Assembly: GCA_964367095.1 (NCBI GenBank)
Contig: CAYIXE010000001.1
Coordinates: forward strand, 2,803 to 66,802
DNA from: an uncultured Gammaproteobacteria bacterium
GTDB taxonomy: Bacteria; Patescibacteriota; Microgenomatia; UBA10105; UBA927
Length of the DNA stretch: 64,000 nt
Direction of reading: 5' to 3'
In this document: positions 1 to 64,000 of the stretch, in pieces
Layout: every line of letters starts with the position of its first letter
Position numbering within the stretch: position 1 is the stretch's first letter
Notes under the pieces: model-generated
Seen by the model: only the letters and a program-made list of their open reading frames with translations
What the model was told of the DNA's origin: nothing
Databases searched by the model: none
Program-made: the position numbers and the translations under genes

Positions 1-159
1 CTTGCGAAGAGACATTGATTGATTAATCTGCACAATAGAAAAACTCATATCACCAAAGTTCCGCTGACAATAAATTCTCGCAAAATACCCACGGTGGTCA
101 ACATGAGGCTCAGGGTCAATAAGTTTAACTTCATCAAATGCCGTTTTCGAAAAAATCAT
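1..159 (-). CDS. dTDP/CDP-4-keto-6-deoxyhexose 3,5-epimerase-like (RmlC cupin family), N-terminal fragment; the gene continues past the window start
   Basis: Reverse-complement translation from the ATG at 159-157 gives MIFSKTAFDEVKLIDPEPHVDHRGYFARIY..., which resembles RmlC N-termini (VKLIEPKVFGDERGFF). Its start forms an ATGA overlap with the stop of the 156..1115 gene. The six-frame track missed it; the plus-strand ORF 19..261 overlaps it and is likely spurious. Confidence 0.5.
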   Translation of the reverse strand, partial: MIFSKTAFDEVKLIDPEPHVDHRGYFARIYCQRNFGDMSFSIVQINQSMSLRK

Positions 160-1115
160 AACTTTGCCCTATACCATTCAATAATTGATTGTATCGTTGT
201 ATCAAAAGTAAATTTATTCTTCCATCCAAGAGCCCTAATCTTTGTATCATCTAAGTGTTGATATGGAATTTCATTATGTGCGATATTTTGAATATTATAT
301 TCAATTTTTTTCCCAAGCTTATTTTCTACTTTTTTTAGTACCTCTATAACATTCAAATGGTCAGATGAGGAAAAATTATATGCTTCACCAATTGTTTTAT
401 GCAACTTATCCAATAAAACCAGATACCCATCTACTACGTCTTTTACATACAAATAATCACGTTCATAAGTGCCATCGCTGCGCACTTCCAAAACTTCGTT
501 TTTGACAACTGACCTGCATATCCCAGGAATCAATCGGTTAAAATGAAAATCACCTTCTCCATATACATTTCCAAACCGAGTAACAACTACCGGAAGATTA
601 TACGTAACGTAATAGGCTCTCGAAATGATATCAGCACAAGCTTTTGAAGCATCATAGGGATGATCGCCAGCCAAGGGAGATAATTCAGTATAGTCAGACG
701 TAGTTTTGCCATACGCTTTATCAGAAGACGCCACAATCACTCCCTTGATTCCTTTACAAAATCTTAGCGCTTCCAGTACATTTATTGTTCCCATAATATT
801 TGTATCAAAGGCTGTACAAGGATCATCGAAACTGGATTCAACAATTGCCTCCGCTGCCAAATGATAAACATAGTCCGGCTTAATTTCCATTATTAAATTC
901 TTTACAGCATCCCGATGACGAATATCAAGGTTGATAACACGCACTTTTGAAGCAAGTTTTAATACTGTAAAATAGGATAACTCAGGGAATACATTATCAA
1001 TAACGACAACGTCCACTCCCTCAGCAACTAAACGCTCGGTTAAATGACTACCTATAAATCCAGCCCCACCCGTCACTATTATCTTTGCCTTATTTAATTT
1101 TTCCATACTTTCCAT
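156..1115 (-). CDS. NAD-dependent sugar epimerase/dehydratase (extended SDR), possibly a CDP-glucose 4,6-dehydratase-like enzyme
   Basis: Rossmann motif IIVTGGAGFIGSHL. Has SSDKAYG and YDASKACAD catalytic motifs that resemble the SDKCYD / YSNSKGCAE of CDP-glucose 4,6-dehydratases. Lies next to rfbF. Confidence 0.75.
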   Translation of the reverse strand: MESMEKLNKAKIIVTGGAGFIGSHLTERLVAEGVDVVVIDNVFPELSYFTVLKLASKVRVINLDIRHRDAVKNLIMEIKPDYVYHLAAEAIVESSFDDPCTAFDTNIMGTINVLEALRFCKGIKGVIVASSDKAYGKTTSDYTELSPLAGDHPYDASKACADIISRAYYVTYNLPVVVTRFGNVYGEGDFHFNRLIPGICRSVVKNEVLEVRSDGTYERDYLYVKDVVDGYLVLLDKLHKTIGEAYNFSSSDHLNVIEVLKKVENKLGKKIEYNIQNIAHNEIPYQHLDDTKIRALGWKNKFTFDTTIQSIIEWYRAKL

Positions 1116-1879
1116 TTCGGATCTTCTTCCCAGTATCGATTCAGACTTTCTACATCAGCATATGTATCCATGCAATGCCAAAATCCATCATGGAGGTAAA
1201 CAGATAGTTGACGTTCGGAAATTAAACGTTTTATTGCCGGATGTTCGAATTCACCCAGACGCAGGTAGTCAAAAAAACTTTGTTTAAACACCATAAAGCC
1301 ACCATTTACTCTTCCACTTAGAACTGGTTTCTCTACAAACTTAGTTGCTATATTCTGCTGATTAATCCGTAGTAACCCATACTTACTTCTTGGATATACT
1401 CCGCTTATAGATCCTATGGTTTTCTGTTTTTTATGAAAATCAACCAGATCCTTAATATTCACGTCACCCACGCCGTCCCCATACGTCACCATGAAATCCT
1501 CATCTTCGGAAGAAATATAATCTTTACACCGCAGTATTCTTTCACCTGGCAATGCTTCCTCTCCTGTGTCTACAAAAGTGATCTTAAAGTCATCAATAAG
1601 CCGACCATCCGTTTTATCACGGTGGATTCGAGTTGCGCTGGTCTTTAGATGGAGAGTAAAATCATGAAGAAAATATTTTTGATTCAAAAAATAATCCTTT
1701 ATATAATTTCCCTTATATCCAAGCGCAATAATAAATTCATTGAATCCATAATGGGCATATATCTTCATGATATGCCAAAGGATAGGCTTGCCACCGATAA
1801 GAACCATTGGCTTAGGCTTAAATTCCGTTTCCTCTTTAAGCCTGTATCCTAACCCACCACATAAAATTATTGTCTTCAT
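1094..1879 (-). CDS. rfbF: glucose-1-phosphate cytidylyltransferase
   Basis: N-terminus MKTIILCGGLGYRLKEETEFKPKPMVLIGGKPILWHIMKIYAHYGFNEFIIALGYKG closely matches RfbF/DdhA. Length 261 aa. Confidence 0.8.
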   Translation of the reverse strand: MKTIILCGGLGYRLKEETEFKPKPMVLIGGKPILWHIMKIYAHYGFNEFIIALGYKGNYIKDYFLNQKYFLHDFTLHLKTSATRIHRDKTDGRLIDDFKITFVDTGEEALPGERILRCKDYISSEDEDFMVTYGDGVGDVNIKDLVDFHKKQKTIGSISGVYPRSKYGLLRINQQNIATKFVEKPVLSGRVNGGFMVFKQSFFDYLRLGEFEHPAIKRLISERQLSVYLHDGFWHCMDTYADVESLNRYWEEDPKWKVWKN

Positions 1880-5025: not shown

Positions 5026-6078
5026 ATGAATGATACGCAGATAAATTCAAGACAGCATAAATTGCTCAATTATCTTCTCATTAATTCTTTTTCTTCAAGA
5101 GCAGAGCTAACAAAAGCTATTGCAGATGAAAAAGGCTCCCGTATAACTATTATACGTGATTTAAACCACCTGCTGAATCTTGGTTGGATTGAGCAATCGG
5201 GAGGTGGAAAACATATAAAGTATAGCCTTAAAATGGGTAAGGAATTGCTTATCCCAGTTGATATTGAGGAATATTTTTTAAAAACTACTGATGCTAGAAA
5301 TATCACGTATCAGCATTTCAATTTTTCAGTAATTGATAATCTGTCTGGACTATTTTCAAAAGAAGAACTTAATCTTTTTGAACTGGGAAGAATAAAATTA
5401 CAGTATAAATTTACATCGCTGGATAAAACGCTGCTTAAACGAGAGCTCGAACGATTCACCATCGAACTCAGTTGGAAATCTTCTCAAATTGAAGGAAATA
5501 CCTATTCATTATTAGAAACTGAAGAGTTAATAAAGAATAAGAAAGAAGCAAAAGGTCATGACAAAAGTGAGGCGATCATGATTCTCAACCATAAAAATAC
5601 ATTTGATACCATACTTGAAAAAAAAGATGGCTTCAAAGAAATTACTGTTTCTGGTATCAGATCAATACATTCTGAACTTATACAAGATCTCAATGTGACT
5701 TCTGGCATCCGTGAGTCAGGAGTTGGCATCACCGGCACTAAGTATCTTCCTCTTGATAACAAATGGCAAATTGAAGAAGCTTTAACAAAAATCGTCGTGT
5801 GTGCAAAAAGGACCGATGCCATAGCTGAAAAGGCGTTAACTTTCCTTGCGATGATCGCGTATTTACAACCATTTACCGATGGAAACAAGCGAACATCGCG
5901 AATGATTAGTAACGCCATTTTGTTGGCTAACGGCTACTTCCCTCTCTCATACAGAAGCGTTGATGAAGTGGAATATAAAAAGGCTTTAATTCTTTTCTAC
6001 GAACAGAATAATATGTTTCACTTAAAAAGAATATTTCTAGAGCAGCAACAATTCGCTATGGATAATTACTTCCTATAA
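5026..6078 (+). CDS. Fic/Doc family protein with N-terminal winged-HTH-like region and a non-canonical active-site motif
   Basis: Fic-fold core. The motif position reads YLQPFTDGNKRTSRMI instead of HPFx(D/E)GNGRxxR: His is replaced by Gln and GNGR by GNKR (Doc-like NKR). N-terminus KLLNYLLINSFSSRAELTKAIADEKGSRITIIRDLNHLLNLGWIEQ looks like a wHTH. Confidence 0.7.
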   Translation: MNDTQINSRQHKLLNYLLINSFSSRAELTKAIADEKGSRITIIRDLNHLLNLGWIEQSGGGKHIKYSLKMGKELLIPVDIEEYFLKTTDARNITYQHFNFSVIDNLSGLFSKEELNLFELGRIKLQYKFTSLDKTLLKRELERFTIELSWKSSQIEGNTYSLLETEELIKNKKEAKGHDKSEAIMILNHKNTFDTILEKKDGFKEITVSGIRSIHSELIQDLNVTSGIRESGVGITGTKYLPLDNKWQIEEALTKIVVCAKRTDAIAEKALTFLAMIAYLQPFTDGNKRTSRMISNAILLANGYFPLSYRSVDEVEYKKALILFYEQNNMFHLKRIFLEQQQFAMDNYFL

Positions 6079-7251
6079 TGGAGAGATGGAGCTTGTAACA
6101 ATCAATATCTTCTCAAATATCGTTTGCCACGTAAATGTACGCGCTTGTTTTCTCGCTGCCTGCTTAGCTCTTGAGAGGTTCTTTGTATCGGAAAGAATAG
6201 CGACTATCGCACGTGCGATATCTTGATTATTATACGATACTACAAACGCACATCCTACTTTCTCAAGTGTCTTTGCATTGTATGAAACATCGGTCATAAG
6301 AATCGGAACACCGCAAGAAAGATATGTTTTTATTTTTGTCGGATCTGCATAGTAACTAAAATTTGTTGTATCTCTCCCGCTTGGCATATACGTAGCCAAA
6401 GCTATATCTGATTTTATAATTTCTTTTTGTATGGCTGCTTGGTCAGATTGCCATCCCATAAACTGCACATGTTTTTCTAAAGATAGCGATTCCACAAGTT
6501 CCCGAAGCGGCTGTTCATACTCTCCGCCACCTATAATCGTCAACGAAACACGCGGCAATTTTTTTAGTATAGCGGGCATTGCGCGAATAACCTCCTGAAC
6601 CCCTTGTTTTTCAAGCAAATGCCCAACAAAAATAAGTCGGTAATCATTTTTGACTTTTATCTTCTTTACAATATCTTTTTCCCAAACGCCGATTGGTACG
6701 ACTATTTGTTTATCCTTCGTAGTTTTGAGTCCTAAAAACTTTTTTCTCCCTTCTTCTATTCGTGGCGATACATTCCAACATATATCAGAGTATCTAACCG
6801 CGAAACACTCCATACTATGATAGATGTAATTAATCAGCCAAATATTACTTCGCTTTGGACTAAAATCAATCGCATAAAACACCACTTTATCGACAATTCC
6901 AAAAACGTGAAGCAGTACCCCGACACAGGCATTTAATGGATTAACGCCTATATAAAGGTAAGACGCTTTTGTTAATTTCACACATTCAATAATTGTCGCA
7001 AGTGCATCACGGAAAAATGCTGTTACCGATCCGGCAGACACTCGCTTCACGCTTTTTGTATGGATATTTCTTCCTTTTCTATACACACGTTGTGTGTACG
7101 TTGAATTCTCTGCAAGCAATGGATGACCGATGTATATCAGTGACTGTATTTTTTGAGAAATAAGATAATCACTAAGCGCTTCTGACGCACCATAAAAAAG
7201 CGTATGCGTCACTATGATGACCTGTTCGGGAGTGTTTAGGCGACTTTGCAT
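6073..7251 (-). CDS. GT4 (GT-B fold) glycosyltransferase
   Basis: GT4-like C-terminal domain ([20 protein letters not shown]...GVPILMTD). 392 aa. Confidence 0.7.
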
Positions 7252-8282
7252 ATATCCTCCAGTATCCTATCGCCATTATAGGTATACTGCCAATTCGGAT
7301 AGTGTGATTGAAACTTCGACACATCAGAAATATACCAGATATGATCACCAATCCGCGGTGTATCGATATACGTCATTTTCGCCTTCTTGCCCACAATGGC
7401 TTCGATCTTTGCCACTGCCTCTAGAATAGAGGTATTAGAATGCCGTGATCCACCAATATTATATACTTCTCCAACTTTAGGTTTTTTGTACACTTCGTAA
7501 AATGCCGAGATCAAATCATGAGAGTGAATATTGTCCCGCACCTGCTTGCCTTTGTATCCAATGATCGAATATTGTCTTCCTTCTTTAATACACTTAATCA
7601 GATATGCCAAAAATCCATGGAGTTTGGCCGCGGAATGCGCAGGTCCTGTGAGGCACCCTCCGCGAAATATGACCGTATGGAGACCAAAGTATCTTCCGTA
7701 CTCCTGCACCATGAGGTCAGCTGCCGCTTTAGACACACCAAATACACTATGCGTGCATTGATCTATACTCATAGACTCGTCAATTCCTTTATAAAACTTG
7801 TGACTGGTCGGTAATTCGAATCGTGTCGATTTTTCCACCACTGGCAGTCGATTTGGCGTATCACCATACACTTTATTGGTCGACGTAAATATAAATGTAG
7901 CGTCTTTGGCATGTTTACGAAGATTTTCAAGAAGTAAAAGCGTCGCCTGTGCGTTTATAGAAAAATCCGTTAACGGCTCTTTGGCAGCCCAATCATGAGA
8001 TGGTTGAGCAGCAGTATGGATGATAAGATCAAATATATTTTTTTTGAAAATATCACCAATTTTTTTCTCGTCGCGTACATCTACCGCATGGTGCACATAT
8101 AAATGCTCTTCTTTGGACAGTTTTTTTCTCATCCAACTTGTGTCTCCATCAGCACCAAAAAAATACTTGCGCATATTATTATCTATTCCATGCACTTCAA
8201 ATCCTTTACCACAAAAAAATCGCACCGCTTCAGATCCGATAAGCCCCGCAGAACCCGTGATGAGAACTTTTTTCTTCTTCAT
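7236..8282 (-). CDS. CDP-paratose/tyvelose 2-epimerase-like SDR (RfbE-like)
   Basis: [12 protein letters not shown] Rossmann motif. [41 protein letters not shown] and [16 protein letters not shown] resemble CDP-tyvelose epimerase ([19 protein letters not shown]..., GNGKQVRDVLH). The track ORF start at 8333 is TTG; the ATG at 8282 ([10 protein letters not shown]) is preferred. Confidence 0.55.
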
Positions 8283-8304
8283 ATTACTTTTTACTTTCAA
8301 CTTT

Positions 8305-9279
8305 TTACTTTTTACTTTCGTTATACCACTCAATCGTTTTTTTGAGACCCTCTTCTAATTTCGTTTTCGCACGAAAACCAATTTTTTCAATAGCTTTTGT
8401 GTTATCACTATTTCTTCTCGGAGATCCGTCGGGCTTTGATGTATCAAATTCAATTTTTGTTTTCTTTCCTGACATGGACACAATCATTTCCACCAAGTCT
8501 TTTATCGATACTTCTTCATCAGTCCCAATATTGACAGGATCTGGCACAGGATATTTGTCTATGGCGTCAATGAGACCCTTGGCAAAGTCCTCCACATATA
8601 GAAACGCTCGAGTTTGTTTGCCACTTCCCCACACGCGCAAGGGATTCTCTCCATCAAACACTCGTTTGATAAGTGCCGGTATCACGTGAGATTTCTCAAT
8701 GTCGAAATGATCACGAGGTCCATATGCGTTATATGGCCTCACAATGCCCACCTTCATCCCATACTGCTGACTATAATACATTCCTAGCTTTTCTGCCATG
8801 CGCTTGGCCCATCCGTATCCGCCGTTGGTCGGCTCTGGCTCTCGTAAAAATCCTTCTGATTCGGCAGTTGGAATTTTGGCATCTGCGGGGTAAATACACG
8901 CTGACGATACAACTAAAAATCGCTCAACTTTTGTAAGTCTTGCCGCTTCAATCATAACGGAGGCAATTTTTAAATTATCAAAAAGCATGGTGGCCTGATG
9001 AGTTCGATTATATTCAATACCGCCCACTTTAGCTGCCAAATTCATCACCACCTGTTGCCCTTGACATGCTTTCAACGCATCCTGTTCACTCGCGCAGTCG
9101 CCTGAAATAAACTGAACTTTATCCTTAAGATATAGAATATTTTTGATTACTCCATCTCTCATGCGATCATATACCGTAACCTTTGCACCGAGAGACACAA
9201 GCTGTTCTACCACATGACTACCGATAAATCCAGTGCCCCCGGTCACTAACGCTTTTGTGTCCTGCCAAAAATTATTCAT
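8305..9279 (-). CDS. GDP-L-fucose synthase-like SDR (3,5-epimerase/4-reductase family; ColC/Fcl-like)
   Basis: [20 protein letters not shown] and [16 protein letters not shown] match Fcl-family signatures (SSCIYP ... VWGSG.P.REFLHVDD). The track start at 9351 is TTG and overlaps a conserved promoter motif, so the ATG at 9279 ([15 protein letters not shown]) is preferred. Confidence 0.6.
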
Positions 9280-9312
9280 AGTTCCACCAATTTCATAGTC
9301 GCTTCCTGATAG

Positions 9313-9350
9313 ATTGTAGTATATCGTTTCTCTGATTGAATCGCCATCCA
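9313..9350 (-). promoter_or_regulatory. conserved promoter-like motif (copy 2 of 2) upstream of the Fcl-like SDR gene
   Basis: TTGTAGTATATCGTTTCTCTGATTGAATCGCCA is near-identical to 4938-4975. Its distance to the downstream ATG (9279) is about 37 nt, the same as copy 1. Confidence 0.4.
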
Positions 9351-9420
9351 AACGTTACTATCGTGCTACTAGCAATACATTTTGCCTTTTAACCTAAATT
9401 TTACCAACATACTCCCTCTA

Positions 9421-9448
9421 CACTTTCATTTATCGATAAATGAAAGTG
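9421..9448. promoter_or_regulatory. 28-bp perfect palindrome CACTTTCATTTATCGATAAATGAAAGTG (copy A), directly abutting the stop codon of the TrpR-like gene; candidate operator
   Basis: Exact 14+14 palindrome read from the sequence, identical to 9840-9867. It sits about 70 bp upstream of the conserved promoter motif of the downstream sugar operon. Confidence 0.6.
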
Positions 9449-9832
9449 TTACTTGTGATACCGCCGAAGATTGTACGCGAGTGTCTTTACTACCTTTTTC
9501 CAAAAATCTTCCATCTCCTCGCTATACATGCGTTTTTGAAGAAGCTTTTTTGTACTTTCTCCACCCTTATCCAACCATTCTGACACACGATTAATAGTAG
9601 AGGTGCTTACATGTAAAATATATACAATATCTTCGTAGTTAAATTGCTTATGAAGCATCATTGCAACCGCGAGACGTTTGGCAAACATAACACGTTCTGT
9701 CTTTGTAAAAAAATCATAGTAAAACGCTTTGACATCTTGCGGATTACGAATAGATTGAAGAACCCAAAGAAAATCATCCCTAATTGAATAATATACATCT
9801 TTATCAACCGGTCTTTTTGAAAGCTGTGTCAT
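9449..9832 (-). CDS. TrpR-like (YerC/YecD family) transcriptional regulator
   Basis: 127 aa. MFAKRLAVAMMLHKQFNYEDIVYILHVSTSTINRVSEWL fits the Trp-repressor-like YerC/YecD family. Flanked on both sides by identical palindromes. Confidence 0.6.
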   Translation of the reverse strand: MTQLSKRPVDKDVYYSIRDDFLWVLQSIRNPQDVKAFYYDFFTKTERVMFAKRLAVAMMLHKQFNYEDIVYILHVSTSTINRVSEWLDKGGESTKKLLQKRMYSEEMEDFWKKVVKTLAYNLRRYHK

Positions 9833-9839
9833 ATATCCT

Positions 9840-9876
9840 CACTTTCATTTATCGATAAATGAAAGTGAAATGTCAA
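9840..9876 (-). promoter_or_regulatory. autoregulatory promoter/operator: consensus -35 TTGACA (rc of 9871-9876) followed by the 28-bp palindrome (copy B, 9840-9867), which overlaps the -10 position; GAGGA SD and ATG at 9832
   Basis: Transcribed strand reads TTGACA-TTT-CACTTTCATTTATCGATAAATGAAAGTG-AGGATAT-ATG. ATAAAT/GATAAA lie 17-18 nt after the -35, inside the palindrome. Confidence 0.55.
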
Positions 9877-9925
9877 GAGAGTATTTATAGTATTGGAGGG
9901 ATAATTATTTTCTCTAGGCTACTAT

Positions 9926-11113
9926 TCACACGTTTATCTTCGTAAATATTTTGACTATTGTATTCATTTCCTTTTTCGTCAATTCTGGATTGTTACCAAA
10001 ATAGAGCCCTTGCGTATGCACGAGCTCAGCATTTCGCGTATTCATTTTTGCGGCCTTGCCTTGATAGCGACGGAAAAAAGGCTGTTTGGTCATATCGCCA
10101 CCCACCACTGGTCGTATTTCTACTTTTCCATCACACGCTTCTACCAGCGCGTCACGAATTTTCTGCGATCTACAAATCACCGGTACAGCAAAATTAGAAA
10201 CCCTATCGATATGATTGTATCTTATGGGATAAAATAAATCTGTTCTGGCATAAATTTGTTTTGCCATATATAAAAAATTCTTTTCTCGCTTTCGTATAAT
10301 TTCAGGAAGATACTGCATTTGATTATTACCCAAAAATCCCTGAATTTCTGTCGTTCTCAAGTTATACCCCAAATCATAAAATGTGTATCGGGAATAAAAG
10401 GTAGAATTCACATCGTGTTTTACTCTCAAAAATAATTGTTTATCTTCCGTCAAATTACGATCCCACCCATGTGCACGTACTAGATGAAGCATGGTCATAA
10501 GTTCTTCGTCATCCGTCACGACTGCACCGCCCTCAACGGTCGACATATGATGACCAACATAGAATGAAAATGTACTCGCCAGTCCCCAATTACCAAGCTT
10601 TATGCCTTTATATACTGTGCCCAATGACTCACAATTGTCTTCAATAAATATAATTTTTTGTTGTTTACACAATCGGGCTATGGCATCTATATCATCACAA
10701 AACCCCAAAAGATTTGTAAGAAATAACATTTTGATCTTGTTTTTTTTGAGGACCTCTTCTAGCGTGCGTGTAGAAATATTGAGCGTGTCAAGCTCTATAT
10801 CGATGGCGATAGGATTTAGACCTAATTGTATAAGCGGCATGACGTTTGTCGACCACGTTAATGCAGAAAAACCGACTGCATCTCCTTTTTTGATCCTCCC
10901 CAAATTAAGAAGTGCTTGAATGAGAGCTAAATTTGCTGAACTCCCACTGTTTACGAAGAGACAATATTTACGATCTTGATAGTTCGAAAATTTCTGTTCG
11001 AATTTACGACATTGTTCACCAATACTTAATTTTTCTGCTTTCAAGATAAACGTGCACAACAGTTTTTTTGTATTCTTTTCGTTGTAAAACGTCGATTTAA
11101 TCAGTGGAATCAT
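9926..11113 (-). CDS. PMP/PLP-dependent sugar 3-dehydratase of the DegT family with a ColD/RfbH-type His-His active site (GDP-4-keto-6-deoxymannose 3-dehydratase-like)
   Basis: VNSGSSANLALIQALL...IKKGDAVGFSALTWSTNVMPLIQLGLNPIAIDI...IEDNCESLGTVYKG...SFYVGHHMSTVEGGAVVTDDEELMTMLHLVRAHGWDRNL parallels ColD (LEDNCESMGAT...SFYSHHIATMEGGCIVTDDEE...IRAHGWTRNL). The usual PLP lysine is replaced by His. No CxC...CxxC Fe-S motif as in RfbH/E1. Start taken at the ATG at 11113 (MIPLIKSTF...). Confidence 0.7.
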   Translation of the reverse strand: MIPLIKSTFYNEKNTKKLLCTFILKAEKLSIGEQCRKFEQKFSNYQDRKYCLFVNSGSSANLALIQALLNLGRIKKGDAVGFSALTWSTNVMPLIQLGLNPIAIDIELDTLNISTRTLEEVLKKNKIKMLFLTNLLGFCDDIDAIARLCKQQKIIFIEDNCESLGTVYKGIKLGNWGLASTFSFYVGHHMSTVEGGAVVTDDEELMTMLHLVRAHGWDRNLTEDKQLFLRVKHDVNSTFYSRYTFYDLGYNLRTTEIQGFLGNNQMQYLPEIIRKREKNFLYMAKQIYARTDLFYPIRYNHIDRVSNFAVPVICRSQKIRDALVEACDGKVEIRPVVGGDMTKQPFFRRYQGKAAKMNTRNAELVHTQGLYFGNNPELTKKEMNTIVKIFTKINV

Positions 11114-11114
11114 A

Positions 11115-12050
11115 CTATTCTCCCTGTTCTCTTTTATACCATTCATACGTTTTCAACAAGCCTCTATCAAGATTAGTTTTTGGTGTCCAGTTCATTGCGC
11201 GTTTTATCTTTTCCCACGAAACGACTTGACTTAATAATTCTTCCTCTCTTCCATCCTCAGTCTTATCTATGCGTAATTCTTTTGAGCTCATGCCAATAAT
11301 TTTGGTCATTAAGTCTCTGACGGATATTGGCTTCCCTGTTCCCACGTTATAAATTCTGTTTTTCTCAAGCTGTGCATCAGTTATTTGCCCGAGCATGCCG
11401 TACGCTCGTATCGCATCATCTATATACAAATATTCTCGTTTCGCACTTCCTCCCCACATAGTGGGATTTTTGCCACTCACGACACTTTGCATGGTCTTGG
11501 GGATCACGCGTGAAAAATTAAGATCGCCCGGACCATAAATATTTACAAATCGTGGAATTAAAACCGGTAGATTAAAACTATCTGCATAAGACTGCGCGAT
11601 AAGGTCTACACACGTCTTTGATGTTTCGTAAGGCCTTGACGGTCGTGGCGGCTCATCTTCCCGATACGGTACTGACGCTCTCCCATAGACATGTGACGTA
11701 GACGCAATAATAATCCGCTGTATATTATAGCTTCGCGAAACCTCAAGGACATTTAACGCACTCGTAATATTATTATTAAATGTCCCGTATGGCTCTTTAG
11801 AACCGGACTCGACGAGTGCTTCACTGGCTAAATGAAAACACGCATCAGGTTTAAATTGTTTGAATACTTTCAATAATTCAGCTTTATTGGCGACATCAAC
11901 TTTTTTTTCTATCGTCGAATTATACGGGTGTCTTGATAGACCAAGCACCTTTGCTTTTTTTCCCAAAAGATAGGAAACCAGATGTCTCCCGATAAATCCG
12001 CTTGATCCGGTAATAAGTACACGACTATTTTCCCAAGATTTTATTTGCAT
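11115..12050 (-). CDS. NAD(P)-dependent sugar epimerase/reductase (SDR)
   Basis: VLITGSSGFIGRHL Rossmann motif. STSHVYG and YETSKTCVD catalytic motifs. 311 aa. Confidence 0.7.
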   Translation of the reverse strand: MQIKSWENSRVLITGSSGFIGRHLVSYLLGKKAKVLGLSRHPYNSTIEKKVDVANKAELLKVFKQFKPDACFHLASEALVESGSKEPYGTFNNNITSALNVLEVSRSYNIQRIIIASTSHVYGRASVPYREDEPPRPSRPYETSKTCVDLIAQSYADSFNLPVLIPRFVNIYGPGDLNFSRVIPKTMQSVVSGKNPTMWGGSAKREYLYIDDAIRAYGMLGQITDAQLEKNRIYNVGTGKPISVRDLMTKIIGMSSKELRIDKTEDGREEELLSQVVSWEKIKRAMNWTPKTNLDRGLLKTYEWYKREQGE

Positions 12051-17076: not shown

Positions 17077-17762
17077 GGCGACCAAAATCGTAATCGCAAG
17101 AGAGTAAAGAGAGCGACAATACCATCACGCCATGTCAGCTTTTTTCCCTCAGAAAATTTTCTGCCAAAGTATGAAATAGGCACTTCATATATTTGATACC
17201 CGCTTCGAAGTATCTTCGCCGTAATCTCCGGTTCAAAGTCAAATCGTTTTGCTTTGATCGTAATGCCTTTCAGTACTACGGCATCAAATACTTTGCATCC
17301 TGTTTCCATATCCGTAATATTGGTGTTGTAGAGAATGTTGGTGACGAGTGTTACAAATTTATTACCTAACTCATAAATAAACATCGTCGAAAGATGTCCG
17401 CCCAAAAATCGTGATCCGTATACGACATGAACCCGATCATTTTCAAAAGGGGCTAACAGTACTGGATAGTCAGAAGGGCTGTATTCTAAATCCGCGTCTT
17501 GAATAAGGATGATATCTCCTGTGGCCTTTGCAATTCCAATCGTTACTGCCGATCCTTTGCCCTCATTTTTCTTCTTAAAAATGACCTTTACCCTCTTCAC
17601 CCATTTTTTGAGTAGATCTTCTGTACCGTCGGTCGATCCGTCATCTATGATAATAATTTCTTTCTCCCACCCTAAAACTTTCGTTTGGGAAACGAGATTG
17701 AGTACTTCTTCTACCGTCTTCTTTTCGTTGTATACAGGAATGATTATAGAAAGTTTTTTCAT
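17073..17762 (-). CDS. GT2 polyprenyl-phosphate sugar synthase (DPM1-like, soluble form)
   Basis: LSIIIPVYNEKKTVEEVL...IIIIDDGSTDGTEDLL...GKGSAVTIGIAKATGDIILIQDADLEY, a DPM1/GtrB-like GT-A core. 229 aa. Confidence 0.7.
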   Translation of the reverse strand: MKKLSIIIPVYNEKKTVEEVLNLVSQTKVLGWEKEIIIIDDGSTDGTEDLLKKWVKRVKVIFKKKNEGKGSAVTIGIAKATGDIILIQDADLEYSPSDYPVLLAPFENDRVHVVYGSRFLGGHLSTMFIYELGNKFVTLVTNILYNTNITDMETGCKVFDAVVLKGITIKAKRFDFEPEITAKILRSGYQIYEVPISYFGRKFSEGKKLTWRDGIVALFTLLRLRFWSP

Positions 17763-19120
17763 GCGTTGAAAAATGCCTTACCATGGAAGACTAACCACGC
17801 CCAGAGCGGAATAAATTCCAATGTTTTTCCCTCTATCTTTTGTATAGCCGAATAGTTTTTCGTCAATACGTATCCTTTTTCCTTATTAAACTCCTGCAAT
17901 CCTTCTACCATGCCCTGTGTTTCTCTCTCATGCGGCTGATCAGTATATGAAACATTATAAAAAGCCAACGCAGGATCCATAGTCACAAAATCTATCTCTT
18001 TCTTACCTTTCCAATAGTAAATCGCCTGCGATTGTTTTTTTAACTCCATGTATACTACATTTTCCGCACATTGCCCGATATCAGGTCGTAAAAGCGGCAC
18101 GTTAAAATTTCGCAGTCCATTATCGACTACGTACATCTTTCGGGCTCTTTGCACATCCTGCGTCTCCTTCGTTTTATACGAATAATGCTTACTCTCAAAG
18201 AGTAAATATGCCCGCTGAAAATACTCTATGTAGGATTTGGTAGTCTCTAAAGAGAGTTTCTGCGGTCGAGATAAACTACTGTATGTATGCGTTTTCGTAA
18301 AATCAGACATAATCTGAAGTCCTAATACTTCTACTTCCTGCTGATTTCGAACACCATTGGGCACCACAACGTCTCTTGAAACCGTATCTCTAAAATAATT
18401 TGATGCCAATGTCCGTTTGACATCTTCATCTTCGGTAAGCACTATCTCAGGATATCCGCCTTCTTTCATATAATTCCCCAAGTGATGCAGAATTTTCGTT
18501 TGTTGGAAAAAATTAGCCTTGAGAATCGATGATATATTCGCTTGCCCTTCTATAGTAATTCCTTTTATGCGCAAATATTCATAAAAATTAAAGGGGTAGA
18601 CGTCTACTTGAACGTTTCTGCCGGTCAAAACTGTCGCCGACTCTGACTCAACCAACGATCGGCGTGATCCGGAAAGTATAAACTTAACAGGATCTTTCCG
18701 CTCATACTTACTGCTTATCCAACGATTGAAGTCTTTAATTCCTTGAATTTCATCCAAAAATATATAAACTTTCCCTTGCGGGTTGTAAGTCTCCATATAA
18801 TAGATAAAAATATCTTCCAAGAGTTTCCAGCCTTGTGTCAAATACTGCTGCACCAATATATCCTCCAAAAACAAATACACCACGTTTTTGGCCGGTATGC
18901 CTTTCTCAACGATAAGATGCTCCATAAGCTGATGCATCAGCGTTGATTTCCCTGCACGACGAACACCAGTAAGGATTAACACATGACGAATATCCAGAAG
19001 TTTTTTGAGGCGCTCAAGATACTTTTCTCGAGGCACAGTATGTATCCATTTACCTTTCAAAGGATCAGTAAAGTGAGGGTTCCATGTCGAAATTAACGTT
19101 TGACACACTTCTCTATCCAT
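17759..19120 (-). CDS. AAA-family ATPase (AAA_14 + DUF4143 architecture)
   Basis: Walker A LTGVRRAGKSTLM. Walker B-like IFLDEIQ. About 450 aa, typical for this widespread orphan ATPase family. Unrelated to glycan synthesis. Confidence 0.65.
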   Translation of the reverse strand: MDREVCQTLISTWNPHFTDPLKGKWIHTVPREKYLERLKKLLDIRHVLILTGVRRAGKSTLMHQLMEHLIVEKGIPAKNVVYLFLEDILVQQYLTQGWKLLEDIFIYYMETYNPQGKVYIFLDEIQGIKDFNRWISSKYERKDPVKFILSGSRRSLVESESATVLTGRNVQVDVYPFNFYEYLRIKGITIEGQANISSILKANFFQQTKILHHLGNYMKEGGYPEIVLTEDEDVKRTLASNYFRDTVSRDVVVPNGVRNQQEVEVLGLQIMSDFTKTHTYSSLSRPQKLSLETTKSYIEYFQRAYLLFESKHYSYKTKETQDVQRARKMYVVDNGLRNFNVPLLRPDIGQCAENVVYMELKKQSQAIYYWKGKKEIDFVTMDPALAFYNVSYTDQPHERETQGMVEGLQEFNKEKGYVLTKNYSAIQKIEGKTLEFIPLWAWLVFHGKAFFNA

Positions 19121-51745: not shown

Positions 51746-53188
51746 TTAGCTTCTCAATGATTTTATAAAGCCTAGAACGCGACTTTTATCTGTAAGATAT
51801 ATACACCCCGTGTAAAGTATAACACCCGAAAGTCCGACAAAAAAAAGTGTTACGTATGTACTCGGAACAATTTTTAGAATGGTCACATACCACAGCGCTT
51901 GTATCAAAGATGATACGACTGCACTAGAGATATTTCTTATAAATGTAAACGGCACGATCTTTTGCATCTCTTTTACAACAATCCCTATTGTAAATGTGAT
52001 AAGAAAAATAGAAAATGCGACGCCTTGGAATCCAAAAAAGTGAATAAATATCACCGTAACGACCCATGTAAGGGTAGTCCACATCACCATCAAAAGAAGT
52101 GTTGTTTTAATCTTTCCTATTGCATTGAGTGCATTGGTAAGAGGCGTTGTCAGTCCTGCAATCGCCGCGGCTCCGACGAAAAAATAAAATGACAAAAGTG
52201 CTGGTTCCCATTTCGTATACTTAGGTATCAAATGCACAAGCGGTCGGACGAAAAATAGAAGTGCTATCGAGATAGGAAAAATGGTGAGAGATAATCCGTA
52301 AATAGTTTTCTCAAGTGCTTTCCCCAAAAGTATTTTGTCATGCTGGATACGGGAAAATGCCGGAAAGGTGACGCGTATGACGCTATCCATGATAAGGCGC
52401 AAAGGAACCTCTGCCCACTTTTTCGCCCACCCCAAATATCCGACTTCAGAAAAAGGGAGCGCCTTCCCCAAAAAGATAATCAATAAATCATCTTTCACCA
52501 CAGCTAAAAATGAATTCATCTGAAACGGTATACCGAACTTTAAAAGTTTATGCGCCACACTTCTTGATATCCCAAAGCTAGGCATCCAAGGCCAAACGAT
52601 ATATGCCGTTATCACACCTAATATACCCCGACATAATACGGCCCATGAAAAGCTTGCCACACCAAGCCCCTTCCATGCCAAAAATACTGCAACGACATAA
52701 AATCCAAGTGTCTCGACAATCGTGGGGATCACGAGCCGATTAAAAGCCAAGGACCGCTCCATAAGTATTGATGGAATAGTTTTTAACGATGATAAGAAAA
52801 ATGACACGACGAGAGCGCGAAACAGCCACACGCCTGATGCATCCAGCATATAAAAATCGCCTATCTTATATGAAAAAAATAAGGCAATGGTTACAGCAGA
52901 ACCTACCAGAAGCTGCTGGATGGTAAAGGTCGTCTGAAGATCTTCTGTAGTAAGATCATCCTTTTTTTGCACGAGGGCGGCGGCCAATCCTATATCTGAA
53001 AAGTATCCCAAAAACGAAATAACAGCAGACACGACATAGTACACACCAAATATCGAAGGAGTCAAAAGAAGTGTCAAAAGAAACGTCGCAACAAATCCTA
53101 CAATCTGCAACGTAAAAGTTCTTGCGGTAAGAGCCACCATCCCTTTTACTGACTTTGATTTAATGTCTTTTATATCAGTGTCTGTCAT
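51746..53188 (-). CDS. Wzx-type oligosaccharide flippase (MOP/PST family)
   Basis: 480 aa, about 12-14 TM. N-terminus SVKGMVALTARTFTLQIVGFVATFLLTLLLTPSIFGVYYVVSAVISFLGYFSDIGLAAALVQ. Confidence 0.7.
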   Translation of the reverse strand: MTDTDIKDIKSKSVKGMVALTARTFTLQIVGFVATFLLTLLLTPSIFGVYYVVSAVISFLGYFSDIGLAAALVQKKDDLTTEDLQTTFTIQQLLVGSAVTIALFFSYKIGDFYMLDASGVWLFRALVVSFFLSSLKTIPSILMERSLAFNRLVIPTIVETLGFYVVAVFLAWKGLGVASFSWAVLCRGILGVITAYIVWPWMPSFGISRSVAHKLLKFGIPFQMNSFLAVVKDDLLIIFLGKALPFSEVGYLGWAKKWAEVPLRLIMDSVIRVTFPAFSRIQHDKILLGKALEKTIYGLSLTIFPISIALLFFVRPLVHLIPKYTKWEPALLSFYFFVGAAAIAGLTTPLTNALNAIGKIKTTLLLMVMWTTLTWVVTVIFIHFFGFQGVAFSIFLITFTIGIVVKEMQKIVPFTFIRNISSAVVSSLIQALWYVTILKIVPSTYVTLFFVGLSGVILYTGCIYLTDKSRVLGFIKSLRS

Positions 53189-53915
53189 ACTGTAAATTTT
53201 TCCAGGGACGCGTCATAAACAGACGGTACAAACCCTTAAGATCGCCGAATGCAGTTTTTAGAACTCGTACTGTGGACCCAGGATTATCTACCCACCGAAC
53301 CGGTTCTTCATAAATGCGTATCCCGCTTTTTTCGGCAAGAACAAGTAATTCTGTATCAAAAAACCACTCGTTATCTCTAATTCTTGGAAGAATTGTGCGG
53401 GCAATCGTCGAGGACATGGCTTTAAATCCACACTGTGCATCCGAAAAATTAACAAAAAAGAATAGTTTAATGAGGATAATATACATTTTTGATGTAATAG
53501 TTCGAAGCGCTGATCTGCCGTACACAAGTGATCCAGCCGCATTTCGCGTCCCGATTGAGATGTCGTATCCTCGGGAAAGCGAATGAATCAGAGCTGGTAA
53601 ATGCCTAAGATCGCTTGATAAATCAATATCCATATAACAAACAAATCGTGCCGTGCTTTGAAGCCAGGCTTTTTTCACTGCTCGGCCTCTTCCTTTTTCT
53701 TTAAGGTGAATGCTTGAGACGATGGCGTATTTTTTTGTCATCGCATTGGCTATTTCATACGTTTTATCGGTTGATGCATTATCAGCAATTACGATTGTTG
53801 TTTTATACTCTTTAAGATGTGTGGTAACAAAAAAGACAAGCGTCTCCACACTTGAAGAAAGATCCTCTTCTTCGTTGTACACCGGCAATATTATGTCAAG
53901 CGTTATTTTTTTCAT
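53175..53915 (-). CDS. GT2 polyprenyl-phosphate sugar synthase-like (DPM1-like)
   Basis: LDIILPVYNEEEDL...IVIADNASTDKTYEIA...KGRGRAVKKAW. Confidence 0.65.
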   Translation of the reverse strand: MKKITLDIILPVYNEEEDLSSSVETLVFFVTTHLKEYKTTIVIADNASTDKTYEIANAMTKKYAIVSSIHLKEKGRGRAVKKAWLQSTARFVCYMDIDLSSDLRHLPALIHSLSRGYDISIGTRNAAGSLVYGRSALRTITSKMYIILIKLFFFVNFSDAQCGFKAMSSTIARTILPRIRDNEWFFDTELLVLAEKSGIRIYEEPVRWVDNPGSTVRVLKTAFGDLKGLYRLFMTRPWKNLQYDRH

Positions 53916-55560
53916 ATCGAATATAAAAAACTATACAAAACACGCCGGTTAAAAAGCTTAGTATATTTGCTGCCCGCCGCACAGGCGTATCAGATAGACG
54001 TAATTCTACTACACTCTCGCCTTCTAATACTTGAAGGATTGGAAATCCATCCGCAATCGTTGCCTTTATTTCTTTTCCATTGACACTATAATGCCATCCC
54101 GGAAACCACGCCTTCAATATGCGCACAGGCTGAGCAGAAGAAGAAACGATTCTTGCTTTCAAATAGTTTGATTTTTGGACAATGCTTACACTCTTAATCA
54201 AACCCTCAGATTCAAAAATAGAATCATTCTTAAGTGAAGAACTCTTAGGGCGGATAAGATCATAAGGCAAATACTCATCAGATATTTTGGAGACGCGCAC
54301 CTTTAATTCGTTGACTGATTCATAATCGTCAATCGGTCTATACGTTTTTTGCTGCGGCCGAAATTCCTGCTGGTTTACGATGAGAACAAGTATGATAATA
54401 CTGACGGCAAAGACTCGCCTCATCAAAGATCTACTTTGTGTAAATGCCGTCGCAGCAACTACCGACAGAGCAAACGAAGCACTGCTTAAAAACCGCCACG
54501 GATATTGAATATACGAAAAACCCGGAATATACTCCCAAACACTAGCTGATATTGGAAGCATAAAAAATACACTAAGAAAAAATATAATAAACCCAAAAAG
54601 AAGAATCCGACGGGTATTTGATAGAGTAAATCGATGCACAAAGAAAAGAAACATAGCATAGAGAAACAGTGCCAAATGAATAGTTCCAAGCTTAAATGAC
54701 ATGCCGTCAATACATCCTGAAGTGGAACCCCCAAAGCCCCATGGGGAATTGATAAATTGTGATACACACACAAAATGCGATCGAAAATCAGCAGAGCCGC
54801 CTGCCTGGGCTGCAACATTTGTATACCCCATCTCAAAAAGTGCCGGCAGCCAAAAAAACGCACTGAGTAATAATCCAATACCAACCTCTAAAAGATAAAT
54901 AGAAAGCACTGAATCAACGTTCTTCTTTCGAAATTTTGAAACACCCGCATACACTCCAATCCATAACACATAAAATATCACCCAAACATATCCTGATATC
55001 GTGTGGGATAAAATAGTAAGTGCGATGCCAAGAGAACCGACAAACACAGTCTTAGGCTTCACCTTTGACAATAAAGGTGCCGCAATACCATAAAAAAGAA
55101 GAGGCAAAAATGCCGTCGCGTAGAGCTCTCCTACGGCCCCTCGTACATACAATTGCACCGCATGGTACGGCGCGTACATAAAAAGAATCGCGGAGACAGC
55201 CGCCGCCATAACACCAAGAAACTGTTCAAGTACTAAAAATGCCAATAAAGGAGCCAAAATCATGCCAAGTCCCATCATGATCTTTGTAGCAAACATCGCA
55301 GGAATCCCTAAATTTGTTAACGCACCGCCTATATAGTATGGAAGCGGTCCATAAAAATTAAATATCGGATATCCATAGCCGTATCCTAAATCACTCACCC
55401 AACGCACGGGAAACTGTCCATCAGAAAGTGATCGTGCCATAGATACAACTCTGCCAACTTGGGTGTCATCATGCATCGGGAAATACGATGGCCCCAAAAG
55501 AGACAAGATGCCAAATGTAGAAAGGAGAATAACTGCAAGAAGGACAATTATTTTTTTCAT
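53896..55560 (-). CDS. GT-C fold membrane glycosyltransferase, short YfhO-like paralog (4 of 5)
   Basis: FPMHDDTQVGRVVSMARSL...FPVRWVSDLGYGYGYPIFNFYGPLPYY. C-terminal WFPGWHYSVNGKEI...LEGESVVELR. Confidence 0.5.
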   Translation of the reverse strand: MKKIIVLLAVILLSTFGILSLLGPSYFPMHDDTQVGRVVSMARSLSDGQFPVRWVSDLGYGYGYPIFNFYGPLPYYIGGALTNLGIPAMFATKIMMGLGMILAPLLAFLVLEQFLGVMAAAVSAILFMYAPYHAVQLYVRGAVGELYATAFLPLLFYGIAAPLLSKVKPKTVFVGSLGIALTILSHTISGYVWVIFYVLWIGVYAGVSKFRKKNVDSVLSIYLLEVGIGLLLSAFFWLPALFEMGYTNVAAQAGGSADFRSHFVCVSQFINSPWGFGGSTSGCIDGMSFKLGTIHLALFLYAMFLFFVHRFTLSNTRRILLFGFIIFFLSVFFMLPISASVWEYIPGFSYIQYPWRFLSSASFALSVVAATAFTQSRSLMRRVFAVSIIILVLIVNQQEFRPQQKTYRPIDDYESVNELKVRVSKISDEYLPYDLIRPKSSSLKNDSIFESEGLIKSVSIVQKSNYLKARIVSSSAQPVRILKAWFPGWHYSVNGKEIKATIADGFPILQVLEGESVVELRLSDTPVRRAANILSFLTGVFCIVFYIRYEKNNA

Positions 55561-58621: not shown

Positions 58622-58658
58622 AGCCTCATTATATAAAATAAGAGACAACACAAGCAAA

Positions 58659-62148: not shown

Positions 62149-62156
62149 GAAAAATA

Positions 62157-63281: not shown

Positions 63282-64000
63282 CTAAACGCGAGCTCTCCAA
63301 TAATCAAGAAGATCTTTAAGCGTCTTCTCAAAGGGGATTTCCGGCTTCCAGCCGGTTTTTGCAACAAATTTGGAATTATCTCCAATAAGAATTGGAACGT
63401 CAGACGGACGCATTCTCGCGGGATCCTGTTTTATCTGTACTTTCACATTGGAAAACGACAACAACATGTCAAGCACCGCTTTCATCTGAAACGCTTTCCC
63501 TGTGCAAATGTTATATACCTCACCCGGATCACATTTTTCTACAGCTAAAGTATACGCTCGCACCATGTCCCGCACGTCTGTATAATCACGCTCTGCTTCC
63601 AAGTTCCCTACAAAAATAATCGGCTCTTGCTTACCCTTTTCTATAAGTGCAATTTGCTTTGCAAATGTTGATTCTGCAAACGTCTCGCCTCTTCGCGGCC
63701 CCGTGTGATTAAATCCTCGGGTTCTCACTATCCTTAGCTTATACGACTCAAAATACTGATACCCCAAATAATCCATAGCAACTTTAGATACAGCATATGG
63801 CGAAAGAGGTCGCAATGGATTGGTTTCACGAATTGGAACTTCATTTGGAAATACCATGCCGTATTCTTCAGATGAACACGCAATTTGAATCACCGGATCA
63901 ATACCCGATCGTCTGACTGCTTCAAAAAGATTTGCTGATCCGACGATGTTTACTTCAAGCGTGATGGCAGGAGATCCCCATGACGTCGGCACAAAAGATT
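63282..64000 (-). CDS. gmd: GDP-mannose 4,6-dehydratase, C-terminal part; the N-terminus lies beyond the window end
   Basis: RPLSPYAVSKVAMDYLGYQYFESYKLRIVRTRGFNHTGPRRGETFAESTFAKQIALI matches Gmd ([22 protein letters not shown]...[20 protein letters not shown]). The ORF runs open to position 64000. Confidence 0.65.
   Translation of the reverse strand, partial: SFVPTSWGSPAITLEVNIVGSANLFEAVRRSGIDPVIQIACSSEEYGMVFPNEVPIRETNPLRPLSPYAVSKVAMDYLGYQYFESYKLRIVRTRGFNHTGPRRGETFAESTFAKQIALIEKGKQEPIIFVGNLEAERDYTDVRDMVRAYTLAVEKCDPGEVYNICTGKAFQMKAVLDMLLSFSNVKVQIKQDPARMRPSDVPILIGDNSKFVAKTGWKPEIPFEKTLKDLLDYWRARV

Follow-up and report, generated by a model that had tools for sequence, protein, structure and literature searches.

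What sugar does a bacterium of the Patescibacteria make when its genome pairs a ColD-type sugar 3-dehydratase with an Fcl-like reductase, and is that sugar carried on guanosine diphosphate (GDP) or cytidine diphosphate (CDP)? These questions are raised by the window analyzed here, a stretch of 64,000 nucleotides (nt) that matches Hainich groundwater assemblies, and by one of its genes in particular:

9926..11113, minus strand: ColD-type pyridoxamine 5'-phosphate (PMP)/pyridoxal 5'-phosphate (PLP)-dependent sugar 3-dehydratase, His188-His189, Cys-less, 'Gly-His-His' subclade, 395 amino acids (aa)

Judged from its sequence, this open reading frame (ORF) encodes a ColD-type (not E1-type) sugar 3-dehydratase of the DegT family. 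The reading preferred here, at a probability of roughly 0.55, is that the enzyme acts on a GDP-4-keto-6-deoxy sugar and that a short-chain dehydrogenase/reductase (SDR) encoded nearby, SDR-C, would carry the product on to a colitose-like 3,6-dideoxyhexose. Together, the dehydratase and SDR-C probably enable this ultra-small groundwater Patescibacteria bacterium to produce a 3,6-dideoxy surface sugar of a rare type.

The ORF delimited mechanically reaches 11146 (406 aa). Because homologs are 391-396 aa long and a GGGAG Shine-Dalgarno sequence stands 8 nt 5' of the ATG at 11113, the start at 11113 (395 aa) is correct, in agreement with the coordinates given in a preliminary description of this DNA. 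The translation of this minus-strand ORF, which ends at 9926, includes ASTFSFYVGHHMSTVEGGAVVTDDEE, preceded by IFIEDNCESLG and followed by RAHGWDRNL, and it matches Pfam DegT_DnrJ_EryC1 (PF01041) at 214 bits. All four motifs (SFYVGHHMSTVEGG, IEDNCESLG, TDDEE and AHGWDRNL) are present, and the three flanking ones, which the preliminary description had likened to ColD, are common to both proteins in the forms EDNCES, TDDEE and RAHGW.RNL.

Sugar 3-dehydratases carry a His in place of the catalytic Lys that ordinary DegT transamination requires (PMC8987622). HMMER alignments to PDB chains 2gms, 3b8x and 2r0t place the query His188 on ColD His188, which is the residue mutated in PDB 3b8x (H188N) and 2r0t (H188K). 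Every one of 47 close homologs keeps His188, and in a broader alignment of 156 sequences each has a His in the catalytic column. The His-His pair previously noticed at the PLP-lysine site is therefore no misreading: the column that would hold a Schiff-base lysine contains His and no Lys, and by its conservation the motif is not due to chance. Lys-type DegT proteins from neighboring loci (L047, 362 aa; L049, 369 aa) have Lys at this same column. The cofactor-region motifs NSGSSAN and EDNCES are likewise invariant among the 47 close homologs, for which the mean column identity is 78%.

The absence of an iron-sulfur motif separates the protein from E1. E1 and SpnQ have a [2Fe-2S] motif and require a reductase; ColD has no cluster, hydrolyzes the intermediate and uses glutamate to regenerate PMP (PMC8987622). 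By these criteria (His, no [2Fe-2S] cluster) the window protein is of the ColD type. In the HMMER alignment the E1 cysteine cluster RDCYCAPGCDNTCKKR pairs with the Cys-free stretch DRNLTEDKQLFLRVKHD of the window dehydratase, and the region aligned to the E1 cluster RDCYCAPGCDNTC has zero Cys, so that all four cluster cysteines are missing, as the preliminary description had said of the E1/RfbH cluster. Within the 156-sequence alignment the Cys cluster occurs in E1 alone.

Similarity scores give the same order. The PDB matches are headed by the four entries for ColD of E. coli O55 (2gms, E 5e-61, about 210 bits), followed among solved structures by E1 (about 150-153 bits), the putative NDP (nucleoside diphosphate)-4-keto-6-deoxyglucose 3-dehydratase 9wvy (127 bits) and Lys-type aminotransferases (100 bits or less), so ordinary aminotransferases are not the closest relatives. 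Identity to the full-length E. coli O55 ColD, which was retrieved by a back-translated probe, is 36% (35% in the tree alignment), compared with 30-31% to E1. The best NCBIfam model is RfbH (NF011936), at 227.3 bits against a cutoff of 423. The comparison of ColD with RfbH/DdhC that had been proposed for this protein thus comes out for ColD, at 210 bits and 36% versus 153 bits for E1, with the RfbH score below cutoff. An AlphaFold2 (AF2) model (predicted local distance difference test score, pLDDT, 79; predicted template modeling score, pTM, 0.81) is consistent with this ranking, as Foldseek places ColD chains first (TM-score 0.77-0.81) and E1 next. These TM-scores barely separate ColD, E1 and aminotransferases, and the fold is therefore uninformative on nucleotide specificity.

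An exhaustive HMMER scan returned 734 clusters at 50% identity with E <1e-30. The dehydratase is conserved at 52-93% across the Patescibacteria (Microgenomatia, Saccharimonadia and Paceibacteria), with more than 120 clusters at 70-93% identity. Where a close homolog has a named source, it comes from Patescibacteria, and the sources give such proteins only the label 'DegT family aminotransferase'. A neighbor-joining tree of the 156-sequence alignment gives two branches, a Ser-His-His branch with E. coli ColD and a larger Gly-His-His branch with the window protein. Residue 187 is Gly in the window dehydratase and in 96 of the 156 relatives, Ser in ColD and Ala in E1. Ser187 is not known as essential for dehydration. 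No characterized member of the Gly-His-His branch was found, the nearest characterized relatives retrieved being E. coli ColD and E1, and a literature search yielded no paper tying colitose to bacteria of the candidate phyla radiation (CPR). On these comparisons the window dehydratase is classified as a new, distant member of a known enzyme type, in a large Gly-His-His branch of Cys-less 3-dehydratases.

The possibility that the protein is no dehydratase at all, being a divergent DegT protein such as an aminotransferase with another base or a non-catalytic paralog, is very improbable. It could draw on the 227 bits against the 423-bit RfbH cutoff, on the source label 'DegT family aminotransferase', on the Gly at position 187 and on the uncharacterized status of the branch. 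Against it, the Schiff-base Lys that DegT transamination needs (PMC8987622) is missing and the His is invariant in 156 diverse sequences. Conversion of ColD into an aminotransferase takes two mutations, S187N + H188K (double mutant, PDB 3gr9 title). The strong conservation (78% mean column identity) and the occurrence of fusions to Gmd and to 4-reductase-type SDRs, which fit an intermediate step of a pathway, also speak for a working dehydratase.

As a separate observation on this family, inteins interrupt four ColD-like proteins (P0124, P0164, P0167 and P0171), and three of these inteins contain LAGLIDADG homing-endonuclease domains. The insertion site is near the catalytic His-His motif (query residues ~192-195) in three of the four proteins.

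Three genes flank the dehydratase gene, all on the same strand:

8305..9279, minus strand: SDR-C, Fcl/ColC-like NDP-4-keto-sugar epimerase/4-reductase, 324 aa (from NCBIfam Fcl, PDB matches and motifs)
9449..9832, minus strand: YerC/TrpR-like small regulator gene, between the dehydratase and SDR-C
11115..12050, minus strand: SDR-B, extended SDR with motif STSHVYG and no dehydratase acid

SDR-C is the GDP-fucose-synthase-like SDR of the preliminary description, and that identification is upheld. It is the usual immediate neighbor of the dehydratase. It shares with Fcl and ColC the length, the fold family and the equivalents of five catalytic residues (Ser107, Cys109, Tyr136, Lys140 and His179, with motifs SSACIYP and SHVIP). 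It differs from them in scoring 222 bits against the 500-bit NCBIfam Fcl cutoff and in sharing only 28% identity with ColC of E. coli O55 (E 1e-40). In the PDB its highest scores are to GDP-fucose synthases (164-174 bits), followed by GDP-mannose 3,5-epimerase at 158 bits. In E. coli O55, colC overlaps colD and gmd lies elsewhere in the cluster, which makes the pairing of dehydratase and SDR-C canonical.

For a comparison of gene contexts, 36 genome loci and seven loci around homologs of SDR-A (a further SDR of the window, described below) were used, of which 40 carry the dehydratase clade of the window (clade-1). SDR-C orthologs are found in 13 of these 40 clade-1 loci, often immediately 3' of the dehydratase, and no gene separates the two in L006, L007, L027, L029, L044 and L049. 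In the window SDR-C lies 646 nt downstream of the dehydratase (9279 to 9926), with the YerC-like gene alone between them. That gene is bracketed exactly by two identical 28-bp perfect palindromes, CACTTTCATTTATCGATAAATGAAAGTG, at 9421-9448 and 9840-9867 (0 expected by chance), and TTGACA precedes the upstream copy. The gene and its palindromes look like an inserted regulator cassette with putative operator sites, which perhaps controls the downstream SDR-C operon.

On the other side, the TAG stop of SDR-B falls 1 nt before the dehydratase ATG, so the two genes are translationally coupled. SDR-B orthologs of at least 45% identity occur within 10 kb in seven clade-1 loci including the window, and SDR-B is immediately upstream of the dehydratase in the window, L004, L005, L011, L044 and L049. 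From its motifs, SDR-B is probably the 4-ketoreductase or an epimerase of the dehydratase branch. A role as the 4,6-dehydratase of the cassette was considered and rejected, since STSHVYG has no Asp/Glu acid.

The nucleotide specificity of the dehydratase was posed as a question in the preliminary description, and rightly so, as Gmd contexts and fusions in relatives stand opposite RfbF/SDR-A contexts in the subclade of the window. Bona fide Gmd (NCBIfam 440-592 bits) occurs within 10 kb in 10 of the 40 clade-1 loci, a shorter GDP-sugar SDR (gmd-short) in two and RfbF with SDR-A in nine; the other 21 have no activation gene within that distance. Saccharibacteria clusters combine dehydratase homologs of 64-69% identity with a bona fide Gmd (440 bits, cutoff 415), an RMD-like SDR and Wzm/Wzt, and have no RfbF. 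L033 and L036 contain overlapping gmd (592 bits)-colD-fcl (429 bits) cassettes with a dehydratase 53% identical to that of the window. Fusions are also found: P0201 joins Gmd to a ColD-like domain, and P0125 (54% identity) has an RMD-like SDR fused N-terminally to a ColD-like dehydratase.

In the neighbor-joining tree the window subclade is nested among Gmd-context sequences, and only one otherwise-invariant position (254, Pro to Thr) differs between RfbF-context and Gmd-context proteins, which is an informative negative and not decisive on the nucleotide. The characterized ColD-type enzymes, from E. coli, Yersinia and C. jejuni HS:5/HS:11, all use GDP-sugars (PMC8987622, PMC10440746), and the closest characterized relatives found for SDR-C (Fcl, GDP-mannose 3,5-epimerase and ColC) are all GDP-sugar enzymes. 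L049 holds a clade-1 dehydratase and a second, E1-like His-type dehydratase with one RfbF-SDR-A module, which argues for different substrates for the two clades. On balance a GDP-linked sugar is somewhat favored as the substrate.

The window organism itself encodes a GDP-sugar SDR with dehydratase-type motifs:

63282..64000, minus strand: gmd-short, GDP-sugar SDR, C-terminal 238 aa, RMD/GDP-heptose-4,6-dehydratase family, motifs CSSEEYG and GPRRGE

This gene had been described as a gmd consistent with a GDP branch. It is a real, truncated GDP-sugar SDR and is compatible with such a branch, but it is not a canonical Gmd and is not specific evidence. All 238 residues are identical to part of a 320-aa protein, whose best PDB match is RMD (288 bits), ahead of the GDP-manno-heptose 4,6-dehydratase 7us5 of C. 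jejuni (257 bits) and of true GMDs (about 157 bits). Against the gmd model of NCBIfam (cutoff 415) the window fragment scores 125 bits and a 56% ortholog 168 bits. The protein keeps the dehydratase motifs S-x-E and GPRRGE, where RMD has GPGQS. Members of this 318-aa family, which are called Gmd or Rmd depending on the source, are 80-95% identical in more than 120 CPR clusters (P0271-P0390), far above the conservation of the dehydratase. The ArnC-like polyprenyl-phosphate glycosyltransferase and GT-C genes around gmd-short suggest a role in core lipid-linked 6-deoxyhexose glycosylation in Microgenomatia. In L023 a gmd-short ortholog (54-56% identical) directly abuts a 66% dehydratase homolog. 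Its motifs make it plausible that gmd-short supplies the GDP-4-keto-6-deoxy sugar, and Microgenomatia may rely on this housekeeping enzyme and Saccharibacteria on a cluster-borne Gmd, which would explain both patterns of gene context.

The pathway proposed under the GDP reading follows the chemistry of ColD. The dehydratase would bind PMP, which would react with an NDP-4-keto-6-deoxyhexose at its C4 carbonyl to give a ketimine. His188 would then take the C4' proton and the 3-OH would be expelled, after which hydrolysis of the enamine would release NDP-4-keto-3,6-dideoxyhexose and ammonia. L-glutamate would turn PLP back into PMP, and because of this conversion no iron-sulfur cluster or E3 reductase would be needed. 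The likeliest substrate would be GDP-4-keto-6-deoxy-D-mannose or a close GDP-sugar, delivered by a Gmd-family SDR encoded elsewhere, for which gmd-short is the candidate. SDR-C would perform C5 epimerization and C4 reduction to give a colitose-like 3,6-dideoxy-L-hexose, and SDR-B, by direct C4 reduction, might give a D-series isomer. Glycosyltransferases of the GT2/GT4/GT-C island would transfer the sugars to a surface glycan, the presumed acceptor, and the RfbF, SDR-A and RmlC-like genes would form a separate CDP-6-deoxyhexose module in the same island.

The genes of this CDP module, together with a fourth SDR, are as follows:

1..159, minus strand: RmlC-like (dTDP_sugar_isom) epimerase, first 53 codons, following SDR-A; identical to L041 6264-6788
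156..1115, minus strand: SDR-A, CDP-glucose 4,6-dehydratase-type SDR with SSDKAYG motif, overlapping rfbF
1094..1879, minus strand: RfbF-like glucose-1-phosphate cytidylyltransferase (NCBIfam TIGR02623, 270 bits, cutoff 300; next family 78 bits)
7236..8333, minus strand: SDR-D, CDP-tyvelose-2-epimerase-like (RfbE/TyvE-like) SDR (PDB 1orr, 129 bits; next family 76 bits)

All four genes that the preliminary description assigned to a CDP branch are thus present, the RmlC-like one as its first 53 codons. SDR-A scores 213 bits against the NCBIfam CDP_4_6_dhtase model (cutoff 278) and 129-134 bits against PDB 1rkx and 1wvg, and the JGI label for its homologs is CDP-glucose 4,6-dehydratase. Its SDK (Asp-Lys) motif is typical of CDP-glucose 4,6-dehydratases. 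The RmlC-like gene continues beyond the window, with an RmlD-like SDR a few kb further, and these two, belonging to the CDP module itself, favor a GDP-sugar as the substrate of the dehydratase. The ORF scan of the window extended over about 1-54 kb and 58.7-64 kb, apart from four large ORFs (53896-58687 and 60574-62235). Among the scanned ORFs the sole nucleotidyltransferase is clearly RfbF-like, and no E3-like reductase is found, which agrees with the earlier remark that none is present.

SDR-D, whose true start is probably near 8282, is part of a cassette of SDR-B, dehydratase, SDR-C and SDR-D in the window, L004, L005, L044 and L049; relatives lie at L004 12431-13477, L005 13041-14087 and L036 5668-6717. 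The RfbE-like epimerase gene of the preliminary description is therefore real and TyvE-like, but Phe replaces the catalytic Tyr164 (HSVFGVSK) in all four orthologs, down to 63% identity, with Thr124 and Lys168 kept. At the positions where Trp207, Trp210 and Phe211 stack the cytidine, SDR-D has Phe, Tyr and Leu; Trp207 and Trp210 are cytidine-stacking residues (PMC7851689), and the TyvE family takes GDP-glucose too (PMC12188384). A role for SDR-D in making CDP-mannose for a manno-specific ColD-type enzyme was set aside, given that the catalytic Tyr is Phe in all orthologs.

Several observations weigh against the preferred reading. At the level of the enzyme, the identity to ColD is a mere 36%, Gly replaces Ser187, the Gly-His-His branch has no apparent characterized member, and AF2 confidence is low at the active-site loop 186-193 and at the dimer-interface loop 216-252. 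Neither manC nor manB is found among the scanned ORFs. The window gmd-short lies 52 kb from the dehydratase, in another operon beside an ArnC-like GT2 gene; because of this distance and the near-universal distribution of its family, it has no specific link to the dehydratase. The window subclade (window, L001-L005, L044 and L049) is always near RfbF and SDR-A and has no canonical Gmd within 10 kb, and RfbF and the SDK-type SDR-A are the only nucleotidyltransferase and the only unambiguous 4,6-dehydratase near its dehydratases. In L001-L003, RfbF, SDR-A, dehydratase and SDR-C would suffice for a complete CDP-3,6-dideoxy-L-hexose pathway. All seven sampled SDR-A contexts hold a His-type DegT protein or its SDR-C partner. 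L044 has a YerE-like enzyme dependent on thiamine diphosphate (ThDP), and SDR-D resembles a CDP-sugar epimerase. The YerE-type enzyme of Yersinia uses CDP-4-keto-3,6-dideoxyglucose (yersiniose pathway).

These contexts raise the alternative of a CDP route without E1/E3, in which the dehydratase would perform ColD-type chemistry on CDP-4-keto-6-deoxy-D-glucose supplied by RfbF and SDR-A. SDR-C or the RmlC-like enzyme would then lead to an ascarylose-like L-sugar, SDR-B with or without SDR-D to paratose- or tyvelose-like D-sugars, and in relatives the ThDP enzymes to yersiniose-like branched sugars. Such a route is rather unlikely, though far from negligible. The nine of 40 clade-1 loci with RfbF and SDR-A within 10 kb include every close relative of the window, and the minimal four-gene set of L001-L003, the SDK motif of SDR-A and the CDP-tyvelose 2-epimerase as the one clear relative of SDR-D all fit it. 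So do the YerE-like ThDP enzymes or split transketolases beside the module in L002, L003, L044, L045, L047 and L048-L050, and a second Cys-less His-type clade directly beside RfbF, which would link E3-independent dehydratases to CPR CDP modules generally.

However, the CDP route would require that both the dehydratase and SDR-C had departed from the GDP specificity seen in their nearest characterized relatives, and the window dehydratase shows 64-69% identity to Gmd-context homologs and only one fixed difference at otherwise-invariant positions. It would also leave L049 with two redundant dehydratases for its CDP module. The support drawn from SDR-D is lessened by the loss of its catalytic Tyr and cytidine-stacking Trp residues (as identified in PMC7851689) and by the acceptance of GDP-glucose in the TyvE family (PMC12188384). 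In L036 the gmd-colD-fcl cassette stands alongside an RfbF::SDR-A fusion and SDR-D, so the two modules can coexist independently. This apparent fusion of RfbF with a CDP-glucose-4,6-dehydratase-type SDR is a 615-aa ORF at L036 18137-19984. One further locus, L048, was considered as a CDP module without a dehydratase; this was rejected, as an SDR-C ortholog (74%) is cut by the locus edge and a ColD-like gene may lie just outside.

A third explanation keeps GDP and changes the sugar, or else drops strict nucleotide recognition: the substrate could be another GDP-sugar, for example GDP-6-deoxy-4-keto-heptose as in the C. jejuni 3,6-dideoxyheptose pathways, or a relaxed specificity could serve both modules. 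The 257 bits of gmd-short against 7us5 point in this direction, and so do the C. jejuni combination of a ColD-type C3-dehydratase, an RmlC-like C5-epimerase and a separate C4-reductase (PMC10440746), which has analogous parts in the window, and the mixture of Gmd and RfbF contexts at high identity, which fits loose nucleotide recognition. However, the heptose-activation genes gmhA, hddA and hddC were not seen among the scanned ORFs, whose only nucleotidyltransferase is RfbF-like, and the literature consulted gives no precedent for relaxed specificity in ColD or E1 (PMC8987622). Both variants are considered improbable.

Several further features surround the modules discussed above. The remainder of the window is taken up by a glycosylation island whose genes encode GT-C, YfhO, GT2 and GT4 proteins, a flippase and methyltransferases. 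Between 21171 and 62235, more than 40 kb are occupied by about 15 tandem membrane glycosyltransferase-like genes (PMT_2/GT39-like, YfhO, GT87 and PTPS_related; 440-780 aa), interleaved with GT2/GT4 genes, a Wzx-like flippase gene (51746-53188) and methyltransferase genes, an island that is unusually large for a small-genome organism. Two genes look inserted: a Fic-domain gene at 5026-6078, which is the sole plus-strand gene of the 1-22 kb sugar cluster, and an AAA_14/DUF4143 ATPase gene at 17759-19120 (minus strand) amid the glycosyltransferases.

The compared loci contain DegT proteins of a second CPR clade, His-type and Cys-less, about 400 aa long and with motif SFFGSHIITAGGNGG. This clade is closest to E1 (35-37% identity). 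Its members lie beside or divergent from RfbF and an SDR-A-type SDR:

L045 6930-8144, L046 7972-9186, L047 7957-9186, L049 15474-16679 and L050 14501-15697: second clade, motif SFFGSHIITAGGNGG

This clade is a candidate E3-independent CDP-sugar 3-dehydratase. Also adjoining the dehydratase or CDP modules are ThDP-dependent enzymes, each followed by an SDR, in the form of PDH-E1 alpha/beta-like pairs, split transketolases and YerE-like TPP_enzyme_N/M/C proteins:

L023 12162-14136, L002 20005-21179, L044 15477-18160, L045 16657-20957, L047 12460-15154 and L048-L050: ThDP-dependent enzymes

Their presence suggests branched-chain (yersiniose-like) dideoxysugars in CPR. More broadly, it is possible, if doubtful, that Patescibacteria make CDP-3,6-dideoxyhexoses (ascarylose-, tyvelose- or yersiniose-like) without E1/E3 by means of Cys-less, glutamate-recycling dehydratases, the window enzyme belonging to one of two independent CPR lineages and the SFFGSHIITAGGNGG clade being the other. 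If the CDP reading were true, such enzymes would offer an oxygen-tolerant and cofactor-light enzymatic route to CDP-dideoxysugars in place of the hard-to-handle E1/E3 pair.

3,6-Dideoxyhexoses are rare surface sugars with strong antigenicity, described chiefly in Gram-negative pathogens. Patescibacteria are episymbionts of ultra-small size, and their surface glycans probably serve in attachment to the host. The conserved pair of a ColD-type dehydratase and an Fcl-like reductase, widespread in Patescibacteria, points to unexplored CPR cell-surface sugars. The Gly-His-His branch is hereby defined as a large uncharacterized group of 3-dehydratases, for which the gmd-colD-fcl cassettes, the Gmd::ColD and SDR::ColD fusions and the RfbF-linked cassettes provide concrete loci for enzymology.

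Three characterized systems can be set beside the window enzyme. With E1/RfbH/DdhC/AscC (CDP-6-deoxy-L-threo-D-glycero-4-hexulose 3-dehydrase, PDB 3bcx) it shares the His at the Lys position, the first half-reaction, the RfbF and CDP-glucose 4,6-dehydratase-type genes in the island and RfbH as best NCBIfam model; it differs in the absence of the four cluster cysteines, in falling below the RfbH cutoff and in scoring 153 bits, compared with 210 for ColD. The C3-dehydratases of C. jejuni HS:5/HS:11 (GDP-3,6-dideoxyheptose) share the ColD-type glutamate-dependent chemistry and have as partners an RmlC-like epimerase and separate C4-reductases (PMC10440746), and the window has comparable accessory genes together with a 4,6-dehydratase-like SDR (gmd-short). 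These enzymes are, in contrast, 62-67% identical to E. coli ColD (PMC10440746) and on that account belong to the Ser-His-His branch. Compared with ColD/WbdK (E. coli O55, 2gms and 3b8x; Yersinia pseudotuberculosis), the window protein stands at 36% identity, has Gly187, falls in the Gly-His-His branch, belongs to a Patescibacterium host and has in its subclade RfbF and a CDP-glucose-dehydratase type as nearby activation genes, not ManC and Gmd. It has in common with ColD/WbdK the DegT fold, His188 with a second His, the lack of Fe-S cysteines, the EDNCES, TDDEE and RAHGW.RNL motifs and a tightly linked Fcl-family partner.

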